From NCBI GenBank assembly GCA_034421575.1, contig DAOUKG010000066.1:66506-130505 (forward strand): a stretch of DNA of 64,000 nt, given 5' to 3'. The translations under genes were made by a program, and so were the position numbers. Positions within the stretch are counted from its first letter, which is position 1. Every line of letters begins with the position of its first letter. Of this stretch, positions 2,767-63,613 are shown piece by piece. Origin of the DNA: Dehalococcoidia bacterium. Its GTDB lineage: Bacteria; Chloroflexota; Dehalococcoidia; Lucifugimonadales; VXLM01. The notes beneath the pieces were generated by a model. That model did not search any database, was not told where the DNA came from, and was given only the letters and a program-made list of their open reading frames with translations.

Positions 2767-3093
2767 ATGGCACATCCAACCGAAGTAACTGACGCGACAT
2801 TCGAAGACGAGGTCATCAACTCTGACATCCCGGTGCTCGTGGACTTCTGGGCCGACTGGTGCGGACCCTGCAAGATGATCGCGCCCATCGTCAACGACCT
2901 CTCCGAGGAGTACGACGGCAGGATCAAGGTCGCCAAGCTGGACGTGGACGCGAGTCCGCAGTCGGCGATGAAGTACGGTGTGCGCAGCATCCCCACGCTG
3001 CTCATCTTCAAGGGCGGCAGCCCCGTCGACACCATCATAGGAGCAGTGCCGCGAGGCAAGCTCAAGGGCGCGATGGAAGCGGCGCTCAGCTAA
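2767..3093 (+). CDS. trxA: thioredoxin
   Basis: 108 aa with the WCGPC active site and typical thioredoxin length. GGAGG RBS lies upstream of the ATG. Confidence 0.95.
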   Translation: MAHPTEVTDATFEDEVINSDIPVLVDFWADWCGPCKMIAPIVNDLSEEYDGRIKVAKLDVDASPQSAMKYGVRSIPTLLIFKGGSPVDTIIGAVPRGKLKGAMEAALS

Positions 3094-3105
3094 CCTACAC
3101 GCAAA

Positions 3106-3150
3106 AAGACGGGCAGGGGAGCCTTGAATGCGCCCTCCTGCCCGCGTCTT
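3106..3150 (+). terminator. imperfect GC-rich hairpin downstream of trxA
   Basis: GGGCAGG (3111-3117) pairs with CCTGCCC (3137-3143). The stem can extend outward across a 2-nt bulge. Only a weak T tract follows. Confidence 0.4.
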
Positions 3151-3172
3151 CGCACTTACCCTCACACCTCGC

Positions 3173-3270
3173 GGGAGTGGATGGGCTCCGGTGGGCCCTG
3201 CGGTCTTCAAAATCGTTGGTCCCGGTGCTTCCACCGGGACGGTGGGTTCGACTCCCTCACGCTCCCGCCA
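3173..3270 (+). tRNA. selC: tRNA-Sec (anticodon TCA) candidate, selC
   Basis: 98-nt fold built by hand. Acceptor GGGAGTGG/ACGCTCCC has one G-U pair and one G-A mismatch at its base. The 6-bp D stem GGGCTC/GGGCCC carries the 4-nt loop CGGT. The anticodon stem GCGGT/ATCGT carries the loop CTTCAAA (anticodon TCA at 3207-3209). There is a perfect 9-bp extra arm GTCCCGGTG-cttc-CACCGGGAC. The T arm is GTGGG-TTCGACT-CCCTC with one U-U mismatch, followed by discriminator G and an encoded CCA. Loop sequences match my recollection of E. coli selC. Confidence 0.8.
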
Positions 3271-3282
3271 GTTTCCCTGCAA

Positions 3283-3384
3283 GCCCACCAACCACCGTCA
3301 TTCCCGCGTAGGCGGGAATCCAATCCCCTCTGCCGTTCGCGGGAGAGGGCTAGAGCCTGCCCCATTGCAGGATGGGGGTGAGGG
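3283..3384. repeat. composite ~100-bp multi-hairpin intergenic repeat, copy A
   Basis: CCACCGTCATTCCCGCGTAGGCGGGAATCCAATCCCCTCTGCCGTTCGCGGGAGAGGGCTAGAGCCTGCCCCATTGCAGGATGGGGGTGAGGG. It aligns by eye at most positions with the reverse complement of 6121-6222, and partly with 5901-5985. Confidence 0.75.
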
Positions 3385-3533
3385 CTGTCCTACCCCCTAC
3401 ATCACCCCCGTTCGCTGACAACAGCTAGACCGATTCATGGAATTCCGATAGAATTCCCGTTCGATTGGGTACCGTTCGTGCGAAATTCGTGGTAATGTGA
3501 CTTATTAAGCACCCATACACGGGAGGGTTAACG

Positions 3534-4691
3534 ATGGGAAGCAACGGAAACGGCCACGCGAAAACAACCCACGAAGACCCGGTTCTCGTTGTCGTCCAGC
3601 TCAGTGGCGGCAACGACTTTATGAATACGGTGGTGCCGTACTCCGACCCGCACTACTACGACCACCGTTCCACTCTGGGCGTCCCCGAGGACAACCTCAT
3701 CCCCATCGATGAGGACCTGGCGTTCCATGGGAACGCCGCCCCGCTCAAGGAGTTCTGGGACGACGATAAGCTGGCGATAGTGCAGGGCGTCGGCTACCCG
3801 AATTCCAGCCGGTCGCACTTCCGCAGCATGTACATCTGGCACACGTGCGAGCCGGAAAAGATCTCGACCGAGGGTTGGCTGGGCATGACCACCGGCCAGT
3901 TGGACCCCGAAAAGGAGAACGTCCTCACGTCCGTCAACTTCGGGAGGGGCCTGCCACAGGCGCTGGTGTCCAAGGGCGTACCCGTCACGTCGGTCGGCAA
4001 CCTCGACAACTACGGACTGATGACGGGTCTCGACGACGAGGACGACCGGAACGAGACGCTCGAACGGTTCAAGGAGATGTACGCGCCCGCCGTCGGCACG
4101 GGAGCCGTGATGGACTACCTGTCGGAGACCGGACTCGGCGTGCTGGACGGGGCGCATATCCTCAAGACGGTGCCGGGCACGTACCAGTCCGAGGTCGAGT
4201 ACGGCGGCAACGAGATCGCGCGCGGCCTCAGGGACGTTGCGCGGGTTCACCTTGCAGACGTCGGGACTCGCATCTTCTACACGAACCACAACAACTACGA
4301 CACGCACTCGAACCAGGCGCCCACGCACACCACGCTCATCGGCGATCTCTCGCGGGCGATCATGGACTTCTTCCAGGACCTTGAGGACCACGGCAAGGCC
4401 GACAACGTGGCAATGCTGGTGTTCACCGAGTTTGGGCGGCGAGTGGCGGACAACGGCAGCGGCACCGACCACGGGGCAGGGGGCGGCGCATTCCTGATCG
4501 GGAACAAGGTCAACGGCGGCCTGTACGCGGAGTACCCGTCACTGGCTCCCTCCGAGTTGATCGACGGCGAGGACCTGCAGCACACCTACGACTATCGCGG
4601 CATGTACGCCTCGATCCTCGACCAGTGGATGGCCGTCGACTCGAAGCCCATAGTAGGCGGCACCTACGAGCAGCTCCCCGTCTTCGCGTAG
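3534..4691 (+). CDS. DUF1501 domain protein (sulfatase/alkaline-phosphatase-like fold)
   Basis: 385 aa. Motifs LSGGNDFMNTVVPY, GVGYPNSSRSHF and FTEFGRRVADNGSGTDHGAGG are characteristic of DUF1501. GGGAGGG RBS. Confidence 0.85.
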   Translation: MGSNGNGHAKTTHEDPVLVVVQLSGGNDFMNTVVPYSDPHYYDHRSTLGVPEDNLIPIDEDLAFHGNAAPLKEFWDDDKLAIVQGVGYPNSSRSHFRSMYIWHTCEPEKISTEGWLGMTTGQLDPEKENVLTSVNFGRGLPQALVSKGVPVTSVGNLDNYGLMTGLDDEDDRNETLERFKEMYAPAVGTGAVMDYLSETGLGVLDGAHILKTVPGTYQSEVEYGGNEIARGLRDVARVHLADVGTRIFYTNHNNYDTHSNQAPTHTTLIGDLSRAIMDFFQDLEDHGKADNVAMLVFTEFGRRVADNGSGTDHGAGGGAFLIGNKVNGGLYAEYPSLAPSELIDGEDLQHTYDYRGMYASILDQWMAVDSKPIVGGTYEQLPVFA

Positions 4692-5519: not shown

Positions 5520-6255
5520 GTGTTCAGGGTTGGTGAGGTGGGTAGGGAAGACCCCCCTCTCTGTATCTCTCCCCCGGCGGGGGAGAGATTGATGGTCGTG
5601 TATCCCCGGCGGGGAGAGATTGATGGTCGTGTATCCCCGGCGGGGGAGATTGATGGTCGTGTATCCCCGGCGGGGGAGAGATTGGAGATTCTTCGTCGCT
5701 GCGCTCCTCAAAATGACAGACGATTCCTGCATATCTCACACAGTCTGCACAGTTACGAGTGGTGTAGTTGTTCAGAGTTGGTGAGGGGAAGATCCCCCAC
5801 GCCTATGGATACCCGCTTTCGCGGGTATGACGGTGGGTTGTGTGTGTTGAGCGGTCTCATGAAGTCTGAACAGTTACGTTCAGTCTCGGTAAGAGGAACA
5901 CTCTCACCCCCGTTCTGCAACGGGGCAGGCTCTAGCCCTCTCCCGCGAACAGGAGAGGGGATTAGGTTCCCGCCTACGGAGACCTTTGCGTAACTCACCG
6001 TGCGGGAAGACCTTGGCATGAAACACCAATGCTCAACCTCACCCCTCTGGATACCGGCCCCGTATCGTGGTACGGGGTGACGTTCCTTCGCCGGTATGAC
6101 GGTGGCTCTGTATGTCGAACGCCCTCACCCCCGTTCTGCAACGGGGCAGGCTCTAGCCCGCTCCGGCGAACAGGAGAGGGGCTTGGATTCCCGCTTTCGC
6201 GGGAATGACGGTGGGTTGTGTGTCGAGCGGTCTCATGAAGTCTGAACACTCACGC
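5520..6255. repeat. gene-less cluster of several interspersed repeat families (REP/MITE-like)
   Basis: Contains TGTTCAGRGTTGGTGAGG units (5521, 5771). Contains CCCGCTTTCGCGGG-ATGACGGTGGGTTGTGTG-...CTCATGAAGTCTGAACA units (about 5810-5875 and 6186-6250). Contains two CTCACCCCCGTTCTGCAACGGGGCAGGCTCTAGCCC units (5901, 6121). ORFs listed here translate into repeat-derived low-complexity peptides. Confidence 0.75.
5572..5686. repeat. tandem repeat, 30-32-bp unit x about 3.7
   Basis: Units at 5572-5603 (32 bp), 5604-5634 (31 bp), 5635-5664 (30 bp) and a partial unit at 5665-5686. The unit is CCCCGGCGGGGGAGAGATTGATGGTCGTGTAT. Length differences lie in the G run and the GA run. There are no unique spacers. 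Confidence 0.9.
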
Positions 6256-11482: not shown

Positions 11483-12331
11483 GTGCAAGACGCAATGGAG
11501 ACCTCCGGACGGAAGGGCAGGCGAAGCACAGTCGAGACCGCTAATACTCCCCACATCTCCATTCGCCGGCTCAATCACCACTACGGCAGGGGCGAGACTC
11601 GCGTCGCCGCACTTTCGGACATAGACCTCGACATCCAAGAGGGCGAGTTCGTGTCCATCATCGGGCCGAGCGGGTGCGGCAAGACGACCCTGCTCCGCAT
11701 AGTCGGCGGCCTGATCACTCCCACGCAGGGAAGTGTCCGCGTTGCCGGTTCCTCGCCGGACGAATCTCGACGGCAACGGCAATTCGGCGCAGTATTCCAG
11801 GACCCTGCCCTCTTGCCCTGGCGCACTGCGGCAGGGAACGTGGCGCTTTCAATCGAACTGCGCGGGGGTTCTAACGGAGATACATACCCTCGTGAAGTCG
11901 CCACGCTGCTGACAAAGGTCGGGCTGGACGGGTTCCATGGCTCCTATCCTTACCAGCTATCCGGCGGCATGAAGCAGCGCGTAGCCCTCGCCCGTGCGCT
12001 TGCTGCGCGCCCGCGAGTCCTGCTGATGGATGAGCCGTTCGGTTCCCTCGATGAAATGACTCGCACCGACATGGGCTACGAACTCCTCCGCATCTGGGAG
12101 GAACGACCGACCACCGTCCTCTTCGTTACCCACAGCATCGCGGAGGCTGTCATGCTGTCCGACCGGGTGGTCGTGCTTTCGCCTCGTCCGGGAGAGGTCG
12201 TGGACGTGGTCGATATCGGGATGCCGCGTCCAAGAGTGCAATCAATGGAGGAGTCGAAAGTATTCGGAGACCATACGGCCAAGGTGCGAGGTCTGCTCAA
12301 GAGGACAACGGATGAGTCAATTGCCGTCTAG
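11483..12331 (+). CDS. ABC transporter ATP-binding protein (NitT/TauT family)
   Basis: Walker A GPSGCGKTT, signature LSGGMKQR, Walker B LLMDEPF. Confidence 0.9.
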   Translation: MQDAMETSGRKGRRSTVETANTPHISIRRLNHHYGRGETRVAALSDIDLDIQEGEFVSIIGPSGCGKTTLLRIVGGLITPTQGSVRVAGSSPDESRRQRQFGAVFQDPALLPWRTAAGNVALSIELRGGSNGDTYPREVATLLTKVGLDGFHGSYPYQLSGGMKQRVALARALAARPRVLLMDEPFGSLDEMTRTDMGYELLRIWEERPTTVLFVTHSIAEAVMLSDRVVVLSPRPGEVVDVVDIGMPRPRVQSMEESKVFGDHTAKVRGLLKRTTDESIAV

Positions 12332-14423: not shown

Positions 14424-14456
14424 CTGGATTCCCGCCTTCGCGGGAATGACGGGTGA
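14424..14456. repeat. hairpin repeat GGATTCCCGCCTTCGCGGGAATGACGG
   Basis: Same family as 3296-3320 (inverted), 5808-5840 and 6186-6212. Confidence 0.7.
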
Positions 14457-47012: not shown

Positions 47013-47771
47013 ATGACCGAATACCCTGAGCAAGAGTCCATCGGAAGGAAGATTGCCGGGCACATACGTGGCACGCTCATCGCGGGTGTGCTTATCCTCG
47101 TTCCCATCGCAATTACCTATGTGCTGGTGGTTTGGGTCTTCAACAGCATCGATGGGCTTCTTCAGCCCCTGCTGGAGAGTATCACCGATCGTCATATACC
47201 CGGTCTTGGTTTGCTCGCCCTGATCATAATGGTCTATATCCTAGGACTCATCTGGACCAAGCGACTGGGCCGTCGAACGATCCGTACGCTCCAGCACTTC
47301 TTGCTCAAGGTCCCCCTGATCGGCGCCGTCTACGGCCCGGCCAGGAAGCTCATCGAGTCGTTCACAGGCGATAGCACGGCGGGATTCAAAAGGGTGGTCG
47401 TCGTCGAGTACCCGAAGCAGGGCACCTGGATGATCGGGTTCCTCACGGGCATTGCCAACGTCGTGCCGGGCACGACCATGGGGGTGATTTATCTACCCAC
47501 GGCGCCCACTCCGAATTCGGGGTGGGTCGCGATGGTGCCAATCCAGAACATCTACGACACGACGATGACCGTTCAGGAGGCAATGACGATGGTGCTGTCC
47601 GGCGGGATATCATCGCCGGTGCAGATAGACCTCAAGCCGATGGACCCCCTCGAGGTGGCAGAGTTCGCGATGGTCGGATCGGAAGGAGCCACGCCCACGG
47701 TAAGACCCGAATCGGGAGTTTTCAACCTGCCTTTCATCAGCCGCGATGACGAAAGCGAAGAGAGTAGGTGA
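47013..47771 (+). CDS. DUF502 domain membrane protein
   Basis: Two N-terminal TM helices and the conserved LPTAPTPNSGW motif. Confidence 0.85.
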   Translation: MTEYPEQESIGRKIAGHIRGTLIAGVLILVPIAITYVLVVWVFNSIDGLLQPLLESITDRHIPGLGLLALIIMVYILGLIWTKRLGRRTIRTLQHFLLKVPLIGAVYGPARKLIESFTGDSTAGFKRVVVVEYPKQGTWMIGFLTGIANVVPGTTMGVIYLPTAPTPNSGWVAMVPIQNIYDTTMTVQEAMTMVLSGGISSPVQIDLKPMDPLEVAEFAMVGSEGATPTVRPESGVFNLPFISRDDESEESR

Positions 47772-47777
47772 CTTAAT

Positions 47778-48374
47778 ATGGGAGTCGATGCCAACAAAGT
47801 CCGACTGACGGGAGAGAACTCGTTTCTGCGATTAGGTGAATCAGCCGAGGCCGACCCTACGACCAGCAACAGTCATTGGCGAATCGTTCACTCGCCAAAA
47901 GGGCCGGGACACGTCCTGTTTACCAAGGGCGAGTTGACGGGAGGTGAGGCCCGCATCTATTCCGACAACATCGACATGGCCCGCTGGCTTCAGGAAGGCG
48001 TGCAAGCCTCAATGGGCGACCAGTATGCCGGCGACATACCTATCATCGAGGCGGACTTTTGGAAGTCGGGCGACACCCTGTCGTTCTGGACCGAGTACGT
48101 CGAGTCTCGCGACGATCACATCATCCTGACCTGGTACGACCTCGGAGAGCCGGTGATGGTCGCGAATCCACCCGGCGAGAAGGAAGGACAACCTCACGGA
48201 GTGTACAGCCTGCTCATACCGGCGGGACGCGCCCAAATGACGGTGAATGGCGTCGTTGCATCAGGCAAGGCCCACCCGCGACCTCTCGATGACTCCACCA
48301 ACATCAGCACCTGCTGCATCGCCCTATCGGAAACGTGGACCATTCCGCGAGACCACGAGTGGGCATGCGAGTGA
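47778..48374 (+). CDS. hypothetical protein
   Basis: 198-aa ORF starting 6 nt after the DUF502 stop. Coding-like composition. I recognise no family. Confidence 0.55.
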   Translation: MGVDANKVRLTGENSFLRLGESAEADPTTSNSHWRIVHSPKGPGHVLFTKGELTGGEARIYSDNIDMARWLQEGVQASMGDQYAGDIPIIEADFWKSGDTLSFWTEYVESRDDHIILTWYDLGEPVMVANPPGEKEGQPHGVYSLLIPAGRAQMTVNGVVASGKAHPRPLDDSTNISTCCIALSETWTIPRDHEWACE

Positions 48375-48384
48375 GGGGTTCGTT

Positions 48385-49578
48385 CTAGGGGGCCACACCA
48401 GGTTTTGGCTCCCTATCGGGTCGCCGTCGCTGTGCCTCGAGCCACTTGCGCTTCTGCTCCCGCCGGGTCTTCTCGTCCGGGGGTACAAATCGTTGGTGGA
48501 ACTTTGTGCGATACCCTTCGAAGGCACCGTCACGGATGGCCGCGCGCATCTCCTCCATCAGGCGCAGTATGAACCGTACGTTGTGGATCGTTGCCAGACG
48601 GAATGCCAGCAGCTCGTTGGCCCGGAAGAGGTGGTGGATGTAGCCTGCGGTGAAGGTCCGGCAAGCATAGCAGTCGCAGTCCTCCTCTATCGGCGATTGC
48701 AGGTCTCGGAAGCGCGCCGAGTCCACGTTTATGCGACCCTCGCGAACGAAGAGCGCACCGTTGCGAGCGATTCGGGTGGGCAGCACGCAGTCGAACATGT
48801 CGATGCCGCGCGCCACGGATTCGACAAGATCCTCCGGCGAACCAACTCCCATGAGGTAGCGTGGGCGGTCCGAGGGCAGCAGCTCCGTGGTGTGTCCAAC
48901 CGTCTCTATCATCTCGCTCTTGGACTCTCCTACGCTCAGGCCACCAAGTGCGTACCCAGGGAATTCCAGTGCCGTGATCTGCGCGGCAGACCTCTCTCGG
49001 AGATCGAGGAATGTCCCGCCCTGAACGATGCCAAACAGCATCTGGTCGTCTCGTATTTGGGCGTCACGGCACCGCTCCGCCCATCGGGTTGTCTGCTCAA
49101 CGGCGGCAGCCACACCGGCGCGGTCGCTGCCTCCCGGAGCGCAGACGTCAATGGGCATGATAACGTCCGCCCCGATGCCCTCCTGGTGCGCAATGACCGA
49201 TTCGGGACTGAACATGTGCTTGCTGCCGTCGATGTGGGACCTGAATTCGATACCCTCCTCGCTCATGGTCCTCAAGTGTTCGAGGCTGAAGCCTTGAAAT
49301 CCTCCGCTGTCGGTCAGCGTGGGACCGTTCCATGCCATAAACGAGGCAAGTCCTCCCGAGTCCCGCACCGACTCAACCCCTGGGCGCAGGTACAGGTGGT
49401 ACGTGTTGCCCAAGAGTATCGCTGCACCCATCGCGCGGAGGTCATTCGGGTCGACGGCCTTCACCGAGCCCTGTGTCGCCACGGGCATAAAGGCCGGAGT
49501 CGGAACGTCGCCATGGGGCGTGTGAAGCGTCCCAAGGCGGGCCTTGCCGTCCGTCTTGTGAAGATTGAAATCAGTCAT
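48385..49578 (-). CDS. tgt: tRNA-guanine transglycosylase (queuine tRNA-ribosyltransferase)
   Basis: TPAFMPV, LTDSGGFQ, and Zn site CDCYAC...H. Confidence 0.95.
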   Translation of the reverse strand: MTDFNLHKTDGKARLGTLHTPHGDVPTPAFMPVATQGSVKAVDPNDLRAMGAAILLGNTYHLYLRPGVESVRDSGGLASFMAWNGPTLTDSGGFQGFSLEHLRTMSEEGIEFRSHIDGSKHMFSPESVIAHQEGIGADVIMPIDVCAPGGSDRAGVAAAVEQTTRWAERCRDAQIRDDQMLFGIVQGGTFLDLRERSAAQITALEFPGYALGGLSVGESKSEMIETVGHTTELLPSDRPRYLMGVGSPEDLVESVARGIDMFDCVLPTRIARNGALFVREGRINVDSARFRDLQSPIEEDCDCYACRTFTAGYIHHLFRANELLAFRLATIHNVRFILRLMEEMRAAIRDGAFEGYRTKFHQRFVPPDEKTRREQKRKWLEAQRRRPDREPKPGVAP

Positions 49579-49730
49579 CGAGTCTTGTGCCGGTCACGCT
49601 GTTCTGTCCGGTAACGGTAGACGTGTGGATTCATCTTCATTATATGCCAGACATTTCGTAATCATTCTTTGCGGCGAAGCCGATTGAGTATAATGAAGCT
49701 TCCAACAATGCCAATAGAAAGCGAACGCCG

Positions 49731-59379: not shown

Positions 59380-59841
59380 ATGGCTCTCCGACGGCTTCAA
59401 GACCGTCCCCGCATTCTCGAAATCGCCTACGTAGCGACCCTTGCCATGCTGCGTCTGTTCAGGCGTGGCTTGAATCCGGGAGGGTTTGTCGAGTGGTTCT
59501 TCGTCAAAGGCGAGAAGGTGTCAAAGGGCGTCATTTTCAGCTGCCAGATGTGTGGGGACTGCGTACTGCACAGCACCGGCATGACCTGTCCGATGACCTG
59601 CCCGAAGAACCTGCGCAACGGTCCCTGTGGAGGTGTTCGCCAGAATGGGAACTGTGAGATCGTGCCGGATATGCGCTGCGTGTGGGTTGAAGCCTGGGAC
59701 CGATCACAGCGCATGAAGCAGTTTGGCGGGGAAATTCACACGGTGCTTGCGCCTACGGATAGGCGACTCGAAGGCACCTCATCGTGGATCAACGACATCA
59801 GTCCGAACGTTGCCAAGCGGCCGACCGGGTGGGCTGAATGA
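59380..59841 (+). CDS. metV: methylenetetrahydrofolate reductase C-terminal-domain (MetV-like) zinc-ribbon protein
   Basis: CQMCGDCVLHSTGMTCPMTCPKNLRNGPCGG motif. Overlaps the metF start by 4 nt. Confidence 0.8.
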   Translation: MALRRLQDRPRILEIAYVATLAMLRLFRRGLNPGGFVEWFFVKGEKVSKGVIFSCQMCGDCVLHSTGMTCPMTCPKNLRNGPCGGVRQNGNCEIVPDMRCVWVEAWDRSQRMKQFGGEIHTVLAPTDRRLEGTSSWINDISPNVAKRPTGWAE

Positions 59842-60809
59842 GATCGGGTTCGCGACTCGAACGAGTCCTGCGGTCAGGCTACTTCGCGGTCACGGCAGAG
59901 CTACTCTCCCCCGACAGCGCGGATCCGCAGACCGTGATCGAACATGCAAGGATCATCGGCGATTCGTGCGACGCCATCAACGCAACCGACGCTTCGGGCG
60001 CCCACGCCCACATGTCGAACGTCGCCGTCGCCGCCCTGCTTCGTCAGGCAGGATACGACGCAGTCGTGCAGCTCGCGTGTCGTGACCGGAACAGGATCGC
60101 CATGCAGGGAGACCTATTGGGCATTGGGGCGCTCGACATTCGCAATGTCCTTTGCCTGACCGGCGACGGGGTGGGCACGGGCGATCACCCCGAGGCGAAA
60201 CCGGTATTTGACATGGACTCGATCACGCTCCTCCGAACGGCTCGAATCCTTCGCGACAAGGGACAGTTCCTCAGCGGCAGGCCGATCGACTCCCCTCCCC
60301 GTCTATTTCTGGGAGCGGCGAGCAATCCCTTCGTGCCGCCGTACGACTTCCGCCCTCTCCGCCTAAAGAAGAAGATCGGAGCGGGAGCGGACTTCATCCA
60401 GTCCCAGTACTGCTTTGATATTCCCCGCCTTAAGTCGTTCATGGAAACCGTCTGCGACATGGGGCTCCACGAACGCGTATTCATTCTGATAGGGGTGGGT
60501 CCATTGCGGTCTGCGCGGGTGGCCTATTGGATGCGTGACAACATACCGGGCGTCGTAATCCCAGACTCCGTGATCAGGCGGCTGCTCGGCGCAGGGAAGC
60601 GTTCAAGGACCGAAGGCAAACGCATCTGCATCGAAATGATCCAGCAGATAATGGAGATTCCAGGAATCTCGGGGGTCCACCTTATGGCCTACCGGCAGGA
60701 AGAACTCGTGCCGGAGATTCTCAAGGAGGCAGGTCTGCTTCCGAGACCACGATTGGACGACTCAGACCAGACTTTCGACTACGGCGATGCGAGTGTTGAC
60801 GGAGCCTAG
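59838..60809 (+). CDS. metF: methylenetetrahydrofolate reductase
   Basis: 323 aa. FAVTAEL, CRDRN, LTGD, QYCFD motifs of the MTHFR TIM barrel. Confidence 0.9.
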   Translation: MRSGSRLERVLRSGYFAVTAELLSPDSADPQTVIEHARIIGDSCDAINATDASGAHAHMSNVAVAALLRQAGYDAVVQLACRDRNRIAMQGDLLGIGALDIRNVLCLTGDGVGTGDHPEAKPVFDMDSITLLRTARILRDKGQFLSGRPIDSPPRLFLGAASNPFVPPYDFRPLRLKKKIGAGADFIQSQYCFDIPRLKSFMETVCDMGLHERVFILIGVGPLRSARVAYWMRDNIPGVVIPDSVIRRLLGAGKRSRTEGKRICIEMIQQIMEIPGISGVHLMAYRQEELVPEILKEAGLLPRPRLDDSDQTFDYGDASVDGA

Positions 60810-62815: not shown

Positions 62816-63613
62816 ATGGACGTTTCTCTCATGGGCAACAAGAGATCAGGCATGGCGACGGTAAGCGAGAGGTACTTCGCCAGCCCTGCACGAGTCCGCC
62901 GGCTGCTTGATGAGCTGAGCCAAGAAGACAGGGTGTTCCATTCGCTGTCTCTGAAGTCAGGGTCGCCACATACAAGGCCTATTCGTCCCCGAGACCTGCC
63001 AGCAGAAGGCATGCCGCTGCCTGACTGGGTAGTAGAGGCCATAGGTGTCGTCTCAGACTCGGAGACGGGAGTAGCGCTGTTTTGGAATGGCGAAAGGGCG
63101 TGGGGCGTACTTCCGCCATTTCCTATCGAGGAGAACCGTCTGTCCAGCGGTCTGGACGGATCGGAAGTTCTCGAAATCTTTGAGCGCAACATTATCGTCG
63201 GCGTCATTCTCCTAAGAATGGGGCGGTACGCCATTGGAGTTGTGCGAGACAATGAGCTTCTGGTCTCGAAGACAGACACGCGGCTCGTGAAGAATCGTCA
63301 CCGGGCAGGCGGCTCATCGCAGCGGCGATTCATGCGGAGCCGTGACCGGCTAATCAGAGAGTTGTATGACGAAGCGTGTGAAGTGACTCGACGGCTGTTC
63401 GAGCCTCGTTTGAACTCAATCGACTACGTGCTAACCGGCGGAGAGCGCCAGACGATCAACGGCTTCCTGAAACGATGCGGCTTCCTCGAAAAGTCAGGGC
63501 TGGAAGTGATGAGTCGACTGCTGGCGGTCGACCGGCCAAATCACAAGGCGCTTGAAGGCATCCATCGCGAGGTCTGGAAGAGCCGTGTCATCGTCTTCGA
63601 CAGGGACGAATGA
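62816..63613 (+). CDS. Vms1/ANKZF1-like (VLRF1, eRF1-fold) putative peptidyl-tRNA hydrolase
   Basis: 265 aa. ILLRMGRYAIGVVRDNELLVSKT...KNRHRAGGSSQRRFMRSRD has the GG(S)SQ loop in the position of the GSQ/GGQ motif of VLRF1 domains. By recollection of the family pattern. Confidence 0.6.
   Translation: MDVSLMGNKRSGMATVSERYFASPARVRRLLDELSQEDRVFHSLSLKSGSPHTRPIRPRDLPAEGMPLPDWVVEAIGVVSDSETGVALFWNGERAWGVLPPFPIEENRLSSGLDGSEVLEIFERNIIVGVILLRMGRYAIGVVRDNELLVSKTDTRLVKNRHRAGGSSQRRFMRSRDRLIRELYDEACEVTRRLFEPRLNSIDYVLTGGERQTINGFLKRCGFLEKSGLEVMSRLLAVDRPNHKALEGIHREVWKSRVIVFDRDE

Follow-up and report, generated by a model that had tools for sequence, protein, structure and literature searches.

The intergenic segment behind a thioredoxin gene on contig DAOUKG010000066.1 of an uncultured Dehalococcoidia (Chloroflexota) bacterium raises the question of whether it encodes the transfer RNA for selenocysteine (Sec), and, if so, whether the organism reads UGA as Sec. 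The stretch analyzed, hereafter the window, is the 64 kb of this contig from position 66,506 to 130,505, and all coordinates refer to it. A preliminary description had placed a selC gene, encoding tRNA-Sec, at 3173–3270 of the plus strand, and ARAGORN returned a tRNA-SeC with exactly these limits on the same strand, with the anticodon tca at position 35. The Rfam tRNA-Sec covariance model RF01852 matched 3173–3266 of the plus strand over the full model (positions 1–91) with 66.8 bits against a gathering score of 47 (E = 1.9e-11). The tRNA-finder check that had been proposed was thus positive with two tools, and the objection that a missing covariance call would have raised does not arise; the gene had been called hidden, but both standard tools find it directly. 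The gene comprises 98 nt including the encoded CCA and reads GGGAGUGGAUGGGCUCCGGUGGGCCCUGCGGUCUUCAAAAUCGUUGGUCCCGGUGCUUCCACCGGGACGGUGGGUUCGACUCCCUCACGCUCCCGCCA. The only other tRNAs that ARAGORN called in the window, tRNA-Arg(UCU) and tRNA-Trp(CCA), both match RF00005 instead. Together with orthologues that carry compensatory changes, these calls identify 3173–3270 as, very probably, a functional selC gene with anticodon UCA.

Homologous tRNAs were collected by a pattern scan of species-representative genomes in which only the D and anticodon arms were preset, the acceptor, extra, and T arms being left free. The scan gave 120 loci, nearly all from Chloroflexota (Dehalococcoidia, Anaerolineae, a few Chloroflexia, Ktedonobacterales, Caldilineae, and Thermoflexus), plus Collinsella. 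Covariation was assessed in an alignment of 110 distinct Chloroflexota-type tRNA-Sec sequences, and a separate parse covered 107. The bacterial 8/5 architecture, in which eight acceptor-stem positions and five T-stem positions add up to 13, is 96.1% paired in the 110 sequences, compared with 82.9% after shuffling and 43–58% when the partners are slid. Changes on both sides of a pair occur in 21 of the 33 pairs, and none of 500 shuffles attains any of these measures.

Each part of the tRNA can be located in the window copy, in which 11 of the 13 acceptor and T-stem positions form standard pairs. The 5' strand of the acceptor stem (tRNA positions 1–8, 3173–3180) faces the 3' strand assigned from the alignment (positions 87–94, 3259–3266); pairs 1:94 to 7:88 are standard in all 110 sequences, five of them varying on both sides, while the eighth position places G8 opposite A87 in a non-Watson–Crick apposition. 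The D arm (3183–3198) combines a 6-bp stem (GGGCUC/GGGCCC) with the 4-nt loop CGGU, as seen in the sequence, the minimum free energy fold, and the alignment. The anticodon arm (3200–3216), supported by ARAGORN, Rfam, and the fold, has a 5-bp stem and the loop CUUCAAA with the anticodon UCA at 3207–3209, and its pair 32:40 is U-A in 56, A-U in 49, and G-C in 5 of the 110 sequences. At the top of this stem, U27 lies opposite U45 in the Rfam alignment, a third non-pair that the preliminary description did not list. The long extra (variable) arm (3219–3240) is an inverted repeat forming a perfect 9-bp stem (arms 3219–3227 and 3232–3240) around a 4-nt loop, and all nine pairs vary on both sides among the relatives. 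The T arm (3242–3258; Rfam and alignment) has a five-position stem, with G70-C86, U71 opposite U85, and three G-C pairs, and the loop UUCGACU; the T region reads GGTTCGACTCC and is followed by the discriminator G73 (G at 3267) and the encoded CCA (3267–3270 together). The discriminator is G in 105 of 107 relatives, and CCA is encoded in 67 of them. The anticodon loop, D arm, extra-arm stem, T loop, and G73-CCA end that had been picked out by hand are all present.

Orthologues of selC occupy the same site, in the order nifS–trxA–selC–DUF1501, in at least 12 related contigs, and every related contig that reaches far enough, except L016, has a tRNA-SeC there. Against L014, L015, and L017, whose NifS proteins are 85, 79, and 73% identical to that of the window, selC shows 5, 7, and 17 differences over its 98 positions, with flanking DNA only ~72–76% identical and spacers that cannot be aligned. 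The changes relative to these three contigs keep the pairing at 47:68 (G-C to A-U), 32:40 (U-A to A-U), and 31:41 (G.U to G-C), and double changes relative to the relatives occur at 48:67 (U-A to C-G), 54:61 (U-A to C-G), and 55:60 (G-C to C-G); four D-stem changes merely exchange G-C and G.U. Species-level variation is found at 6:89 (U.G, C-G, or U-A), at 47:68 (G-C to G.U), at position 45, and at position 87 (A or G). Stem changes that preserve pairs, and that are often double, are a signature of a working structured RNA, and the comparison across related genomes shows selC to be under structural purifying selection. The nearest named genome in the species-representative collection, OY762443.1, is syntenic, with ~74–88% nucleotide identity (mean 83%) over 5.4 kb.

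The G-A at the base of the acceptor stem and the U-U in the T stem had been entered as caveats; both are real, but they are typical of the lineage and are not defects. Among the 110 sequences, pair 8:87 is G-C in 38, U-A in 13, C-G in 5, A-U in 4, and G-U in 1, unpaired in 47, and gapped in 2, and two purines face each other in ~43% of the sequences. In the 107-sequence parse, the unpaired cases are mostly G-G (37) and G-A (6). Two-sided changes at 8:87 occur in 22 cells and span four Watson–Crick types (GC, UA, CG, and AU), so that 8:87 behaves as a genuine pair position that is often filled by two purines. All close relatives have a purine opposite G8: in most it is G, which likewise cannot pair with G8, and the window shares its A with L003, L009, and L012 alone. 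Pair 71:85 is U-A in 91, G-C in 2, A-U in 1, and unpaired in 16 of the 110 sequences, and covariation across the phylum supports it, like 8:87, as a pair position. The parse of 107 contains 14 distinct sequences with U-U at this position, each with G70-C86 instead of the usual G.U, and U71-U85 is fixed in the window's lineage. The exact combination of G.A, G-C, and U.U is confined, among the collected sequences, to the window's own population.

The same junction can be folded differently, with G8 paired to C86, the purine at 87 bulged, and a T stem of four positions, which would give a 12-bp branch with one bulge in what would still be a tRNA-Sec. In its favor, the Rfam alignment has G8 paired to C86 and A87 facing a gap, G8 is able to pair with a pyrimidine at 86 in most of the sequences mismatched at 8:87, and bulged 12-bp branches are on record (PMC5389517, PMC5330540). 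Covariation nevertheless makes this fold improbable: position 8:86 (GU in 64, GC in 20, and AU in 8) has no two-sided change, compared with the 22 cells at 8:87. The fold also sacrifices the G70-C86 pair, and on the 3' strand 13 nt separate the T loop from G73, as in the 8/5 tRNA of E. coli. The published bulge 51a lies on the 5' strand of the T stem, where there is no room here, as G72–G74 pair without interruption with C82–C84. The G8-C86 conformer may nonetheless form in solution. The window tRNA is accordingly assigned to the 8/5 type of tRNA-Sec, and its two odd positions are best described, from their distribution, as inherited characters of the lineage and not as decay.

These positions coincide with sites that matter in E. 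coli, where the EF-Tu antideterminants of tRNA-Sec are given as C7:G66, G49:U65, and C50:G64 in PMC6267555, which cites Rudinger et al. (1996). In the numbering used here, these correspond to 8:87 (7:66), 70:86 (49:65), and 71:85 (50:64), which are the three odd positions of the lineage. Irregularities of the helix at these sites would plausibly lower the affinity for EF-Tu, so that the tRNA would be left for SelB, in keeping with the known mechanism. A broader proposal, tentative and with the chances against it, is that one branch of Chloroflexota, including this lineage and Thermoflexus, has replaced the antideterminants by a purine–purine 7:66 and a U-U 50:64 clamped by G49-C65, and has also moved selC from selAB to behind trxA. 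If true, it would mean a different structural route to EF-Tu exclusion and a redox-linked transcriptional coupling of selC.

Whether a Sec system stands behind the tRNA can be approached through the relatives. In 25 of their loci, from Dehalococcoidales and Collinsella, selB lies within a few kilobases of selC, together with selA in most and selD in four. In the Dehalococcoidales loci, selB is located downstream of selC on the opposite strand, and in those of Collinsella, both selA and selB precede selC on its own strand. The selD genes of L077 (3362–4426), L092 (630–1700), and L086 (minus strand) have an in-frame TGA in place of the codon for the catalytic Sec/Cys residue, the site reading G-x-G-*-A-x-K-x-G-P compared with GAGCGCKISP in E. 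coli. The SelD of these Dehalococcoidales relatives is predicted to be a selenoprotein itself, and the Sec trait is evidently active in the class Dehalococcoidia. For the window's own genome, a working Sec system is most likely because of the strong purifying selection on the tRNA, and it is likely that this organism decodes UGA as Sec.

Several observations weigh against a functional selC in a Sec-decoding organism. No selA, selB, or selD was found in the 64-kb window, in ~7 kb upstream, or in ~7 kb downstream, the window itself having been covered by Pfam scans of 60 open reading frames (ORFs) and by tblastn with E. coli SelA, SelB, and SelD. Two SelA homology searches, with the Dehalococcoidia SelA from L116 and then with the next-nearest cluster, P0242 (50%-identity representatives), gave no match on contigs of this lineage among the best 120 listed for each. 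No convincing gene with an in-frame TGA was found in the window by a scan for TGA-joined ORF halves of at least 60 amino acids each, with no search for selenocysteine insertion sequence (SECIS) elements run. L016, a locus on the 3.79-Mb contig ERZ24894577:ctg522415l, has a NifS that is 75% identical and keeps nifS–trxA but has no tRNA-Sec behind trxA. A sigma-70-like promoter was looked for directly upstream of selC, and none was found. The D-arm and anticodon-arm columns were partly preset by the scan pattern, so that conservation there, including the 99.5% of D-arm cells that are paired in the alignment, is not independent evidence. The single-sequence folding energy of selC is only modestly below that of shuffled sequences (z = −2.05), and the call therefore draws its strength from the covariance model and comparative covariation and not from thermodynamics.

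These points would suit a relic selC, in a genome that has lost selA, selB, and selD and has ceased to make selenoproteins, with the gene either on its way to becoming a pseudogene or retained in a different function: no sel or selenoprotein gene in the window or its flanks, SelA matches that bypass the lineage among those listed, a syntenic site without selC in L016, and two or three non-Watson–Crick appositions in the tRNA. A drifting gene, however, does not agree with a selC whose rate of change is several times lower than that of its flanks and which accumulates compensatory changes across genus- to family-level divergence. The non-Watson–Crick positions are common to many lineages, including some in which selA and selB adjoin selC. 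The SelA matches listed, the best 120, all come from other clades, with identities of at least 73% and at least 61% to the two queries, so their lack of this lineage is not evidence of absence. A relic is thus very improbable, and a functional selC remains the preferred reading, although L016 suggests that selC can be lost or relocated within the group. At 11600–11720 of L016, a palindrome resembling repetitive extragenic palindromic (REP) elements and an opposite-strand DUF6226 gene occupy the selC site, perhaps in a lineage that lost or moved selC.

The stop codons of the 43 Pfam-supported genes in the window are TAG in 23, TGA in 14, and TAA in 6. TGA usually leads as the stop codon in genomes of ~60% G+C, and TAG as the commonest stop is unusual at this composition. 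A global reassignment of UGA was rejected, as UGA ends 14 of the 43 genes and a normal tRNA-Trp(CCA) is present; UGA is still a frequent stop, and any recoding is therefore site-specific. The TGA-joined ORF candidates turned out to be out-of-frame or opposite-strand artefacts in known genes, adjacent same-frame genes, or unconserved upstream DNA, and the apparent extension before nifS at 1183–1447 does not align with L014. Within 47013–49614, a DUF502 gene (47013–47771) ends in TGA and is followed six bases on, in the same frame, by an ATG-started ORF of 198 amino acids without a Pfam match, which also ends in TGA and overlaps a 455-amino-acid ORF, likewise without a Pfam match; the three were read as adjacent genes and not as read-through.

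UGA usage also bears on the idea that the molecule is a look-alike, namely a selC*-type tRNA-Cys, an allo-tRNA, or a general opal suppressor inserting Ser or Cys at UGA. Mimics of tRNA-Sec do exist and are picked up by tRNA-Sec covariance models (PMC5389517), but a general suppressor would be costly where UGA is a frequent stop. The discriminator is G73 and not the U73 of selC* tRNA-Cys, the acceptor and T stems have 13 positions and not the 12 (8/4 or 9/3) of allo-tRNAs, and close homologues of the window tRNA adjoin selA, selB, and selD. A look-alike is therefore extremely improbable, and the molecule is best taken as a genuine tRNA-Sec.

According to the established bacterial pathway, such a tRNA would be charged with serine by seryl-tRNA synthetase, which would recognize the long extra arm and G73, and the serine would be converted into Sec by SelA with selenophosphate from SelD. 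SelB, and not EF-Tu, would then deliver the charged tRNA to in-frame UGA codons ahead of a SECIS hairpin, and the remaining UGA codons would stay stops. The non-Watson–Crick G8/A87 (7:66) and U71/U85 (50:64) at the acceptor/T junction may, as a hypothesis, help to keep the tRNA off EF-Tu.

Exact protein matches place the window on the 208-kb ENA scaffold ERZ23495174:NGUY21-1_SAMN17524325_METAG-scaffold_214, and an identical TrxA protein is encoded on contigs of 3.5–4.4 Mb from long-read metagenomes, one of which is circular. The surroundings of selC consist of ordinary chromosome of ~60% G+C with housekeeping genes throughout the window, including genes for glycolysis, purine and aromatic amino-acid synthesis, alaS, miaA, hflX, and a methylenetetrahydrofolate reductase (MTHFR) pair, as identified by Pfam. 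Upstream on the same strand lie a gene for a NifS-like class-V aminotransferase (cysteine desulfurase; 1453–2649, PF00266, E = 6e-77), syntenic with trxA–selC, and trxA, encoding a thioredoxin with the active site WCGPC (2767–3093, PF00085, E = 1e-32). The homologues of the former are named cysteine desulfurase NifS, and those at ~71–73% identity are labeled Chloroflexi or SAR202. The window selC begins 79 nt behind the end of trxA, apart from sel protein genes. Between the two genes, RNA folding indicates a stable plus-strand hairpin at 3101–3153, terminator-like but without a U tract (−27.1 kcal/mol and z = −2.7 for 3094–3172), which a consensus terminator scan did not call. Read-through from trxA into selC is possible, and selC may be transcribed with trxA or just after it. 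The conserved downstream neighbor (3534–4691, plus strand, PF07394) belongs to the DUF1501 family and, as far as can be seen, stands outside the Sec system.

The position behind trxA is one of two mutually exclusive arrangements among the collected loci: selC is adjacent to selB in 25 and behind trxA in 24, and neither applies to 83, many of them represented by blocks of 8 kb that end near the tRNA. In the 24 loci, trxA precedes selC on the same strand by 14–242 nt. This group comprises the window's lineage, other Dehalococcoidia metagenome-assembled genomes (MAGs), and Thermoflexus hugenholtzii, with TrxA 51–68% identical in the distant members. Distant Chloroflexota with trxA directly upstream of selC are L021, L026, L047, L052, L063, L066, L068, L083, L085, L095, and L104.

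On its 3' side, the spacer that separates selC from the DUF1501 gene (3271–3533 in the window) varies sharply among genomes with identical TrxA, and divergence begins directly after the CCA. L010 has a spacer of 155 bp, the window and L003 have one of 263 bp, and L001 and L004 have spacers of 526 and 852 bp, respectively; that of L002 reaches 1455 bp and contains two small ORFs, and that of L005 reaches 1968 bp and contains a DUF2513 ORF. An integration hotspot or island at selC was considered and rejected, as there is no integrase and no att-like repeat; in eight loci, no direct repeat of the tRNA 3' end with at most 3 mismatches in 18 nt was found within 6 kb downstream. The genes near the 3' side of selC are DUF1501, small unannotated ORFs, and one DUF2513. 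A 20-nt palindrome, ATTCCCGC-N4-GCGGGAAT, occurs in three intergenic copies in the window (3300–3319, 6187–6206, and 14428–14447), against 0.01 expected by chance. Its variants ATTCCGGC...GCCGGAAT are found in L001, L004, and L016, resembling a small REP-like repeat family, and two further hairpins lie beside the first copy (3326–3349 and ~3359–3378).

Three other loci were observed in passing. The window encodes a VLRF1-type release-factor-like protein of Actinobacteria/Chloroflexi at 62816–63613 (PF18859), and at 59380–60809 a methylenetetrahydrofolate reductase gene preceded by an "MTHFR C-terminal" small-subunit gene (PF12225). In the Anaerolineae MAG contig L051 (6492–6745), two tRNA-Sec starts lie 155 bp apart, the first running into a masked stretch of N, which reflects either a tandem duplication or an assembly artefact.

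The use of Sec in Chloroflexota is known, and the selC described here is a true but ordinary member of a well-known family. The scientific addition is small, since the molecule is a textbook one and imperfect 8/5 pairing is already published; a mild specialist interest lies in the mismatches clustered in the EF-Tu antideterminant box and in the trxA–selC linkage kept across lineages. The practical consequence is that the genome and its relatives can be flagged as probable Sec users, for which a Sec-aware annotation step is advisable. Ordinary gene callers would truncate or split selenoprotein genes at UGA, as with SelD in the related Dehalococcoidales.

Genomic islands associated with selC occur in Enterobacteria, where, as here, the DNA directly 3' of selC differs between strains. 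The window's lineage differs in having no integrase and no repeat of the tRNA 3' end, and in inserts of only 0.1–2 kb. The selC* tRNA-Cys and allo-tRNAs share with the window tRNA the long extra arm, the long D stem with a tetraloop, and a possible UCA anticodon. In contrast to the U73 and the 8/4 branch with bulge A51a of selC* tRNA-Cys, the window tRNA has G73 and no extra base between G72 and G74, and the selB* and cysS* neighbors of selC* are not present at the window selC. Allo-tRNAs have a 12-bp branch in 8/4 or 9/3 form, whereas the 13 positions of the window tRNA follow the 8/5 register.

Minor (8/4) tRNA-Sec with a 12-bp branch and bulge 51a has been described in Chloroflexi and Actinobacteria (Mukai et al. 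2017, PMC5389517), as have 12-bp acceptor/T variants, including that of Dehalogenimonas (Santesmasses et al. 2017, PMC5330540). Compared by published descriptions, these share with the window tRNA the phylum and the imperfect 8/5 pairing at the acceptor/T junction, whereas the window's 3' strand has 13 nt and its T-stem 5' strand has no extra nucleotide. The window copy agrees in lengths and loops with the 110 Chloroflexota tRNA-Sec sequences as a group (Dehalococcoidia, Anaerolineae, and Thermoflexus) and is 70–81% identical to three representatives compared directly. A subgroup including Thermoflexus has U-U at 71:85 with G70-C86, as in the window. Close relatives of the window have G opposite G at 8:87, where the window has G opposite A. 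With respect to E. coli selC (b3658), overall identity is 55%. The 8th acceptor position is C-G in E. coli and G opposite A in the window; the second T-stem position is C-G in E. coli and U opposite U in the window, and the first T pair is G.U and G-C, respectively. The two tRNAs share the anticodon loop CUUCAAA, the D loop CGGU on a 6-bp stem, the T loop UUCGACU, the G73-CCA end, the 8 nt and 2-nt linker before the D stem, the 13 nt from the T loop to the discriminator that mark the 8/5 form, and the long extra arm.

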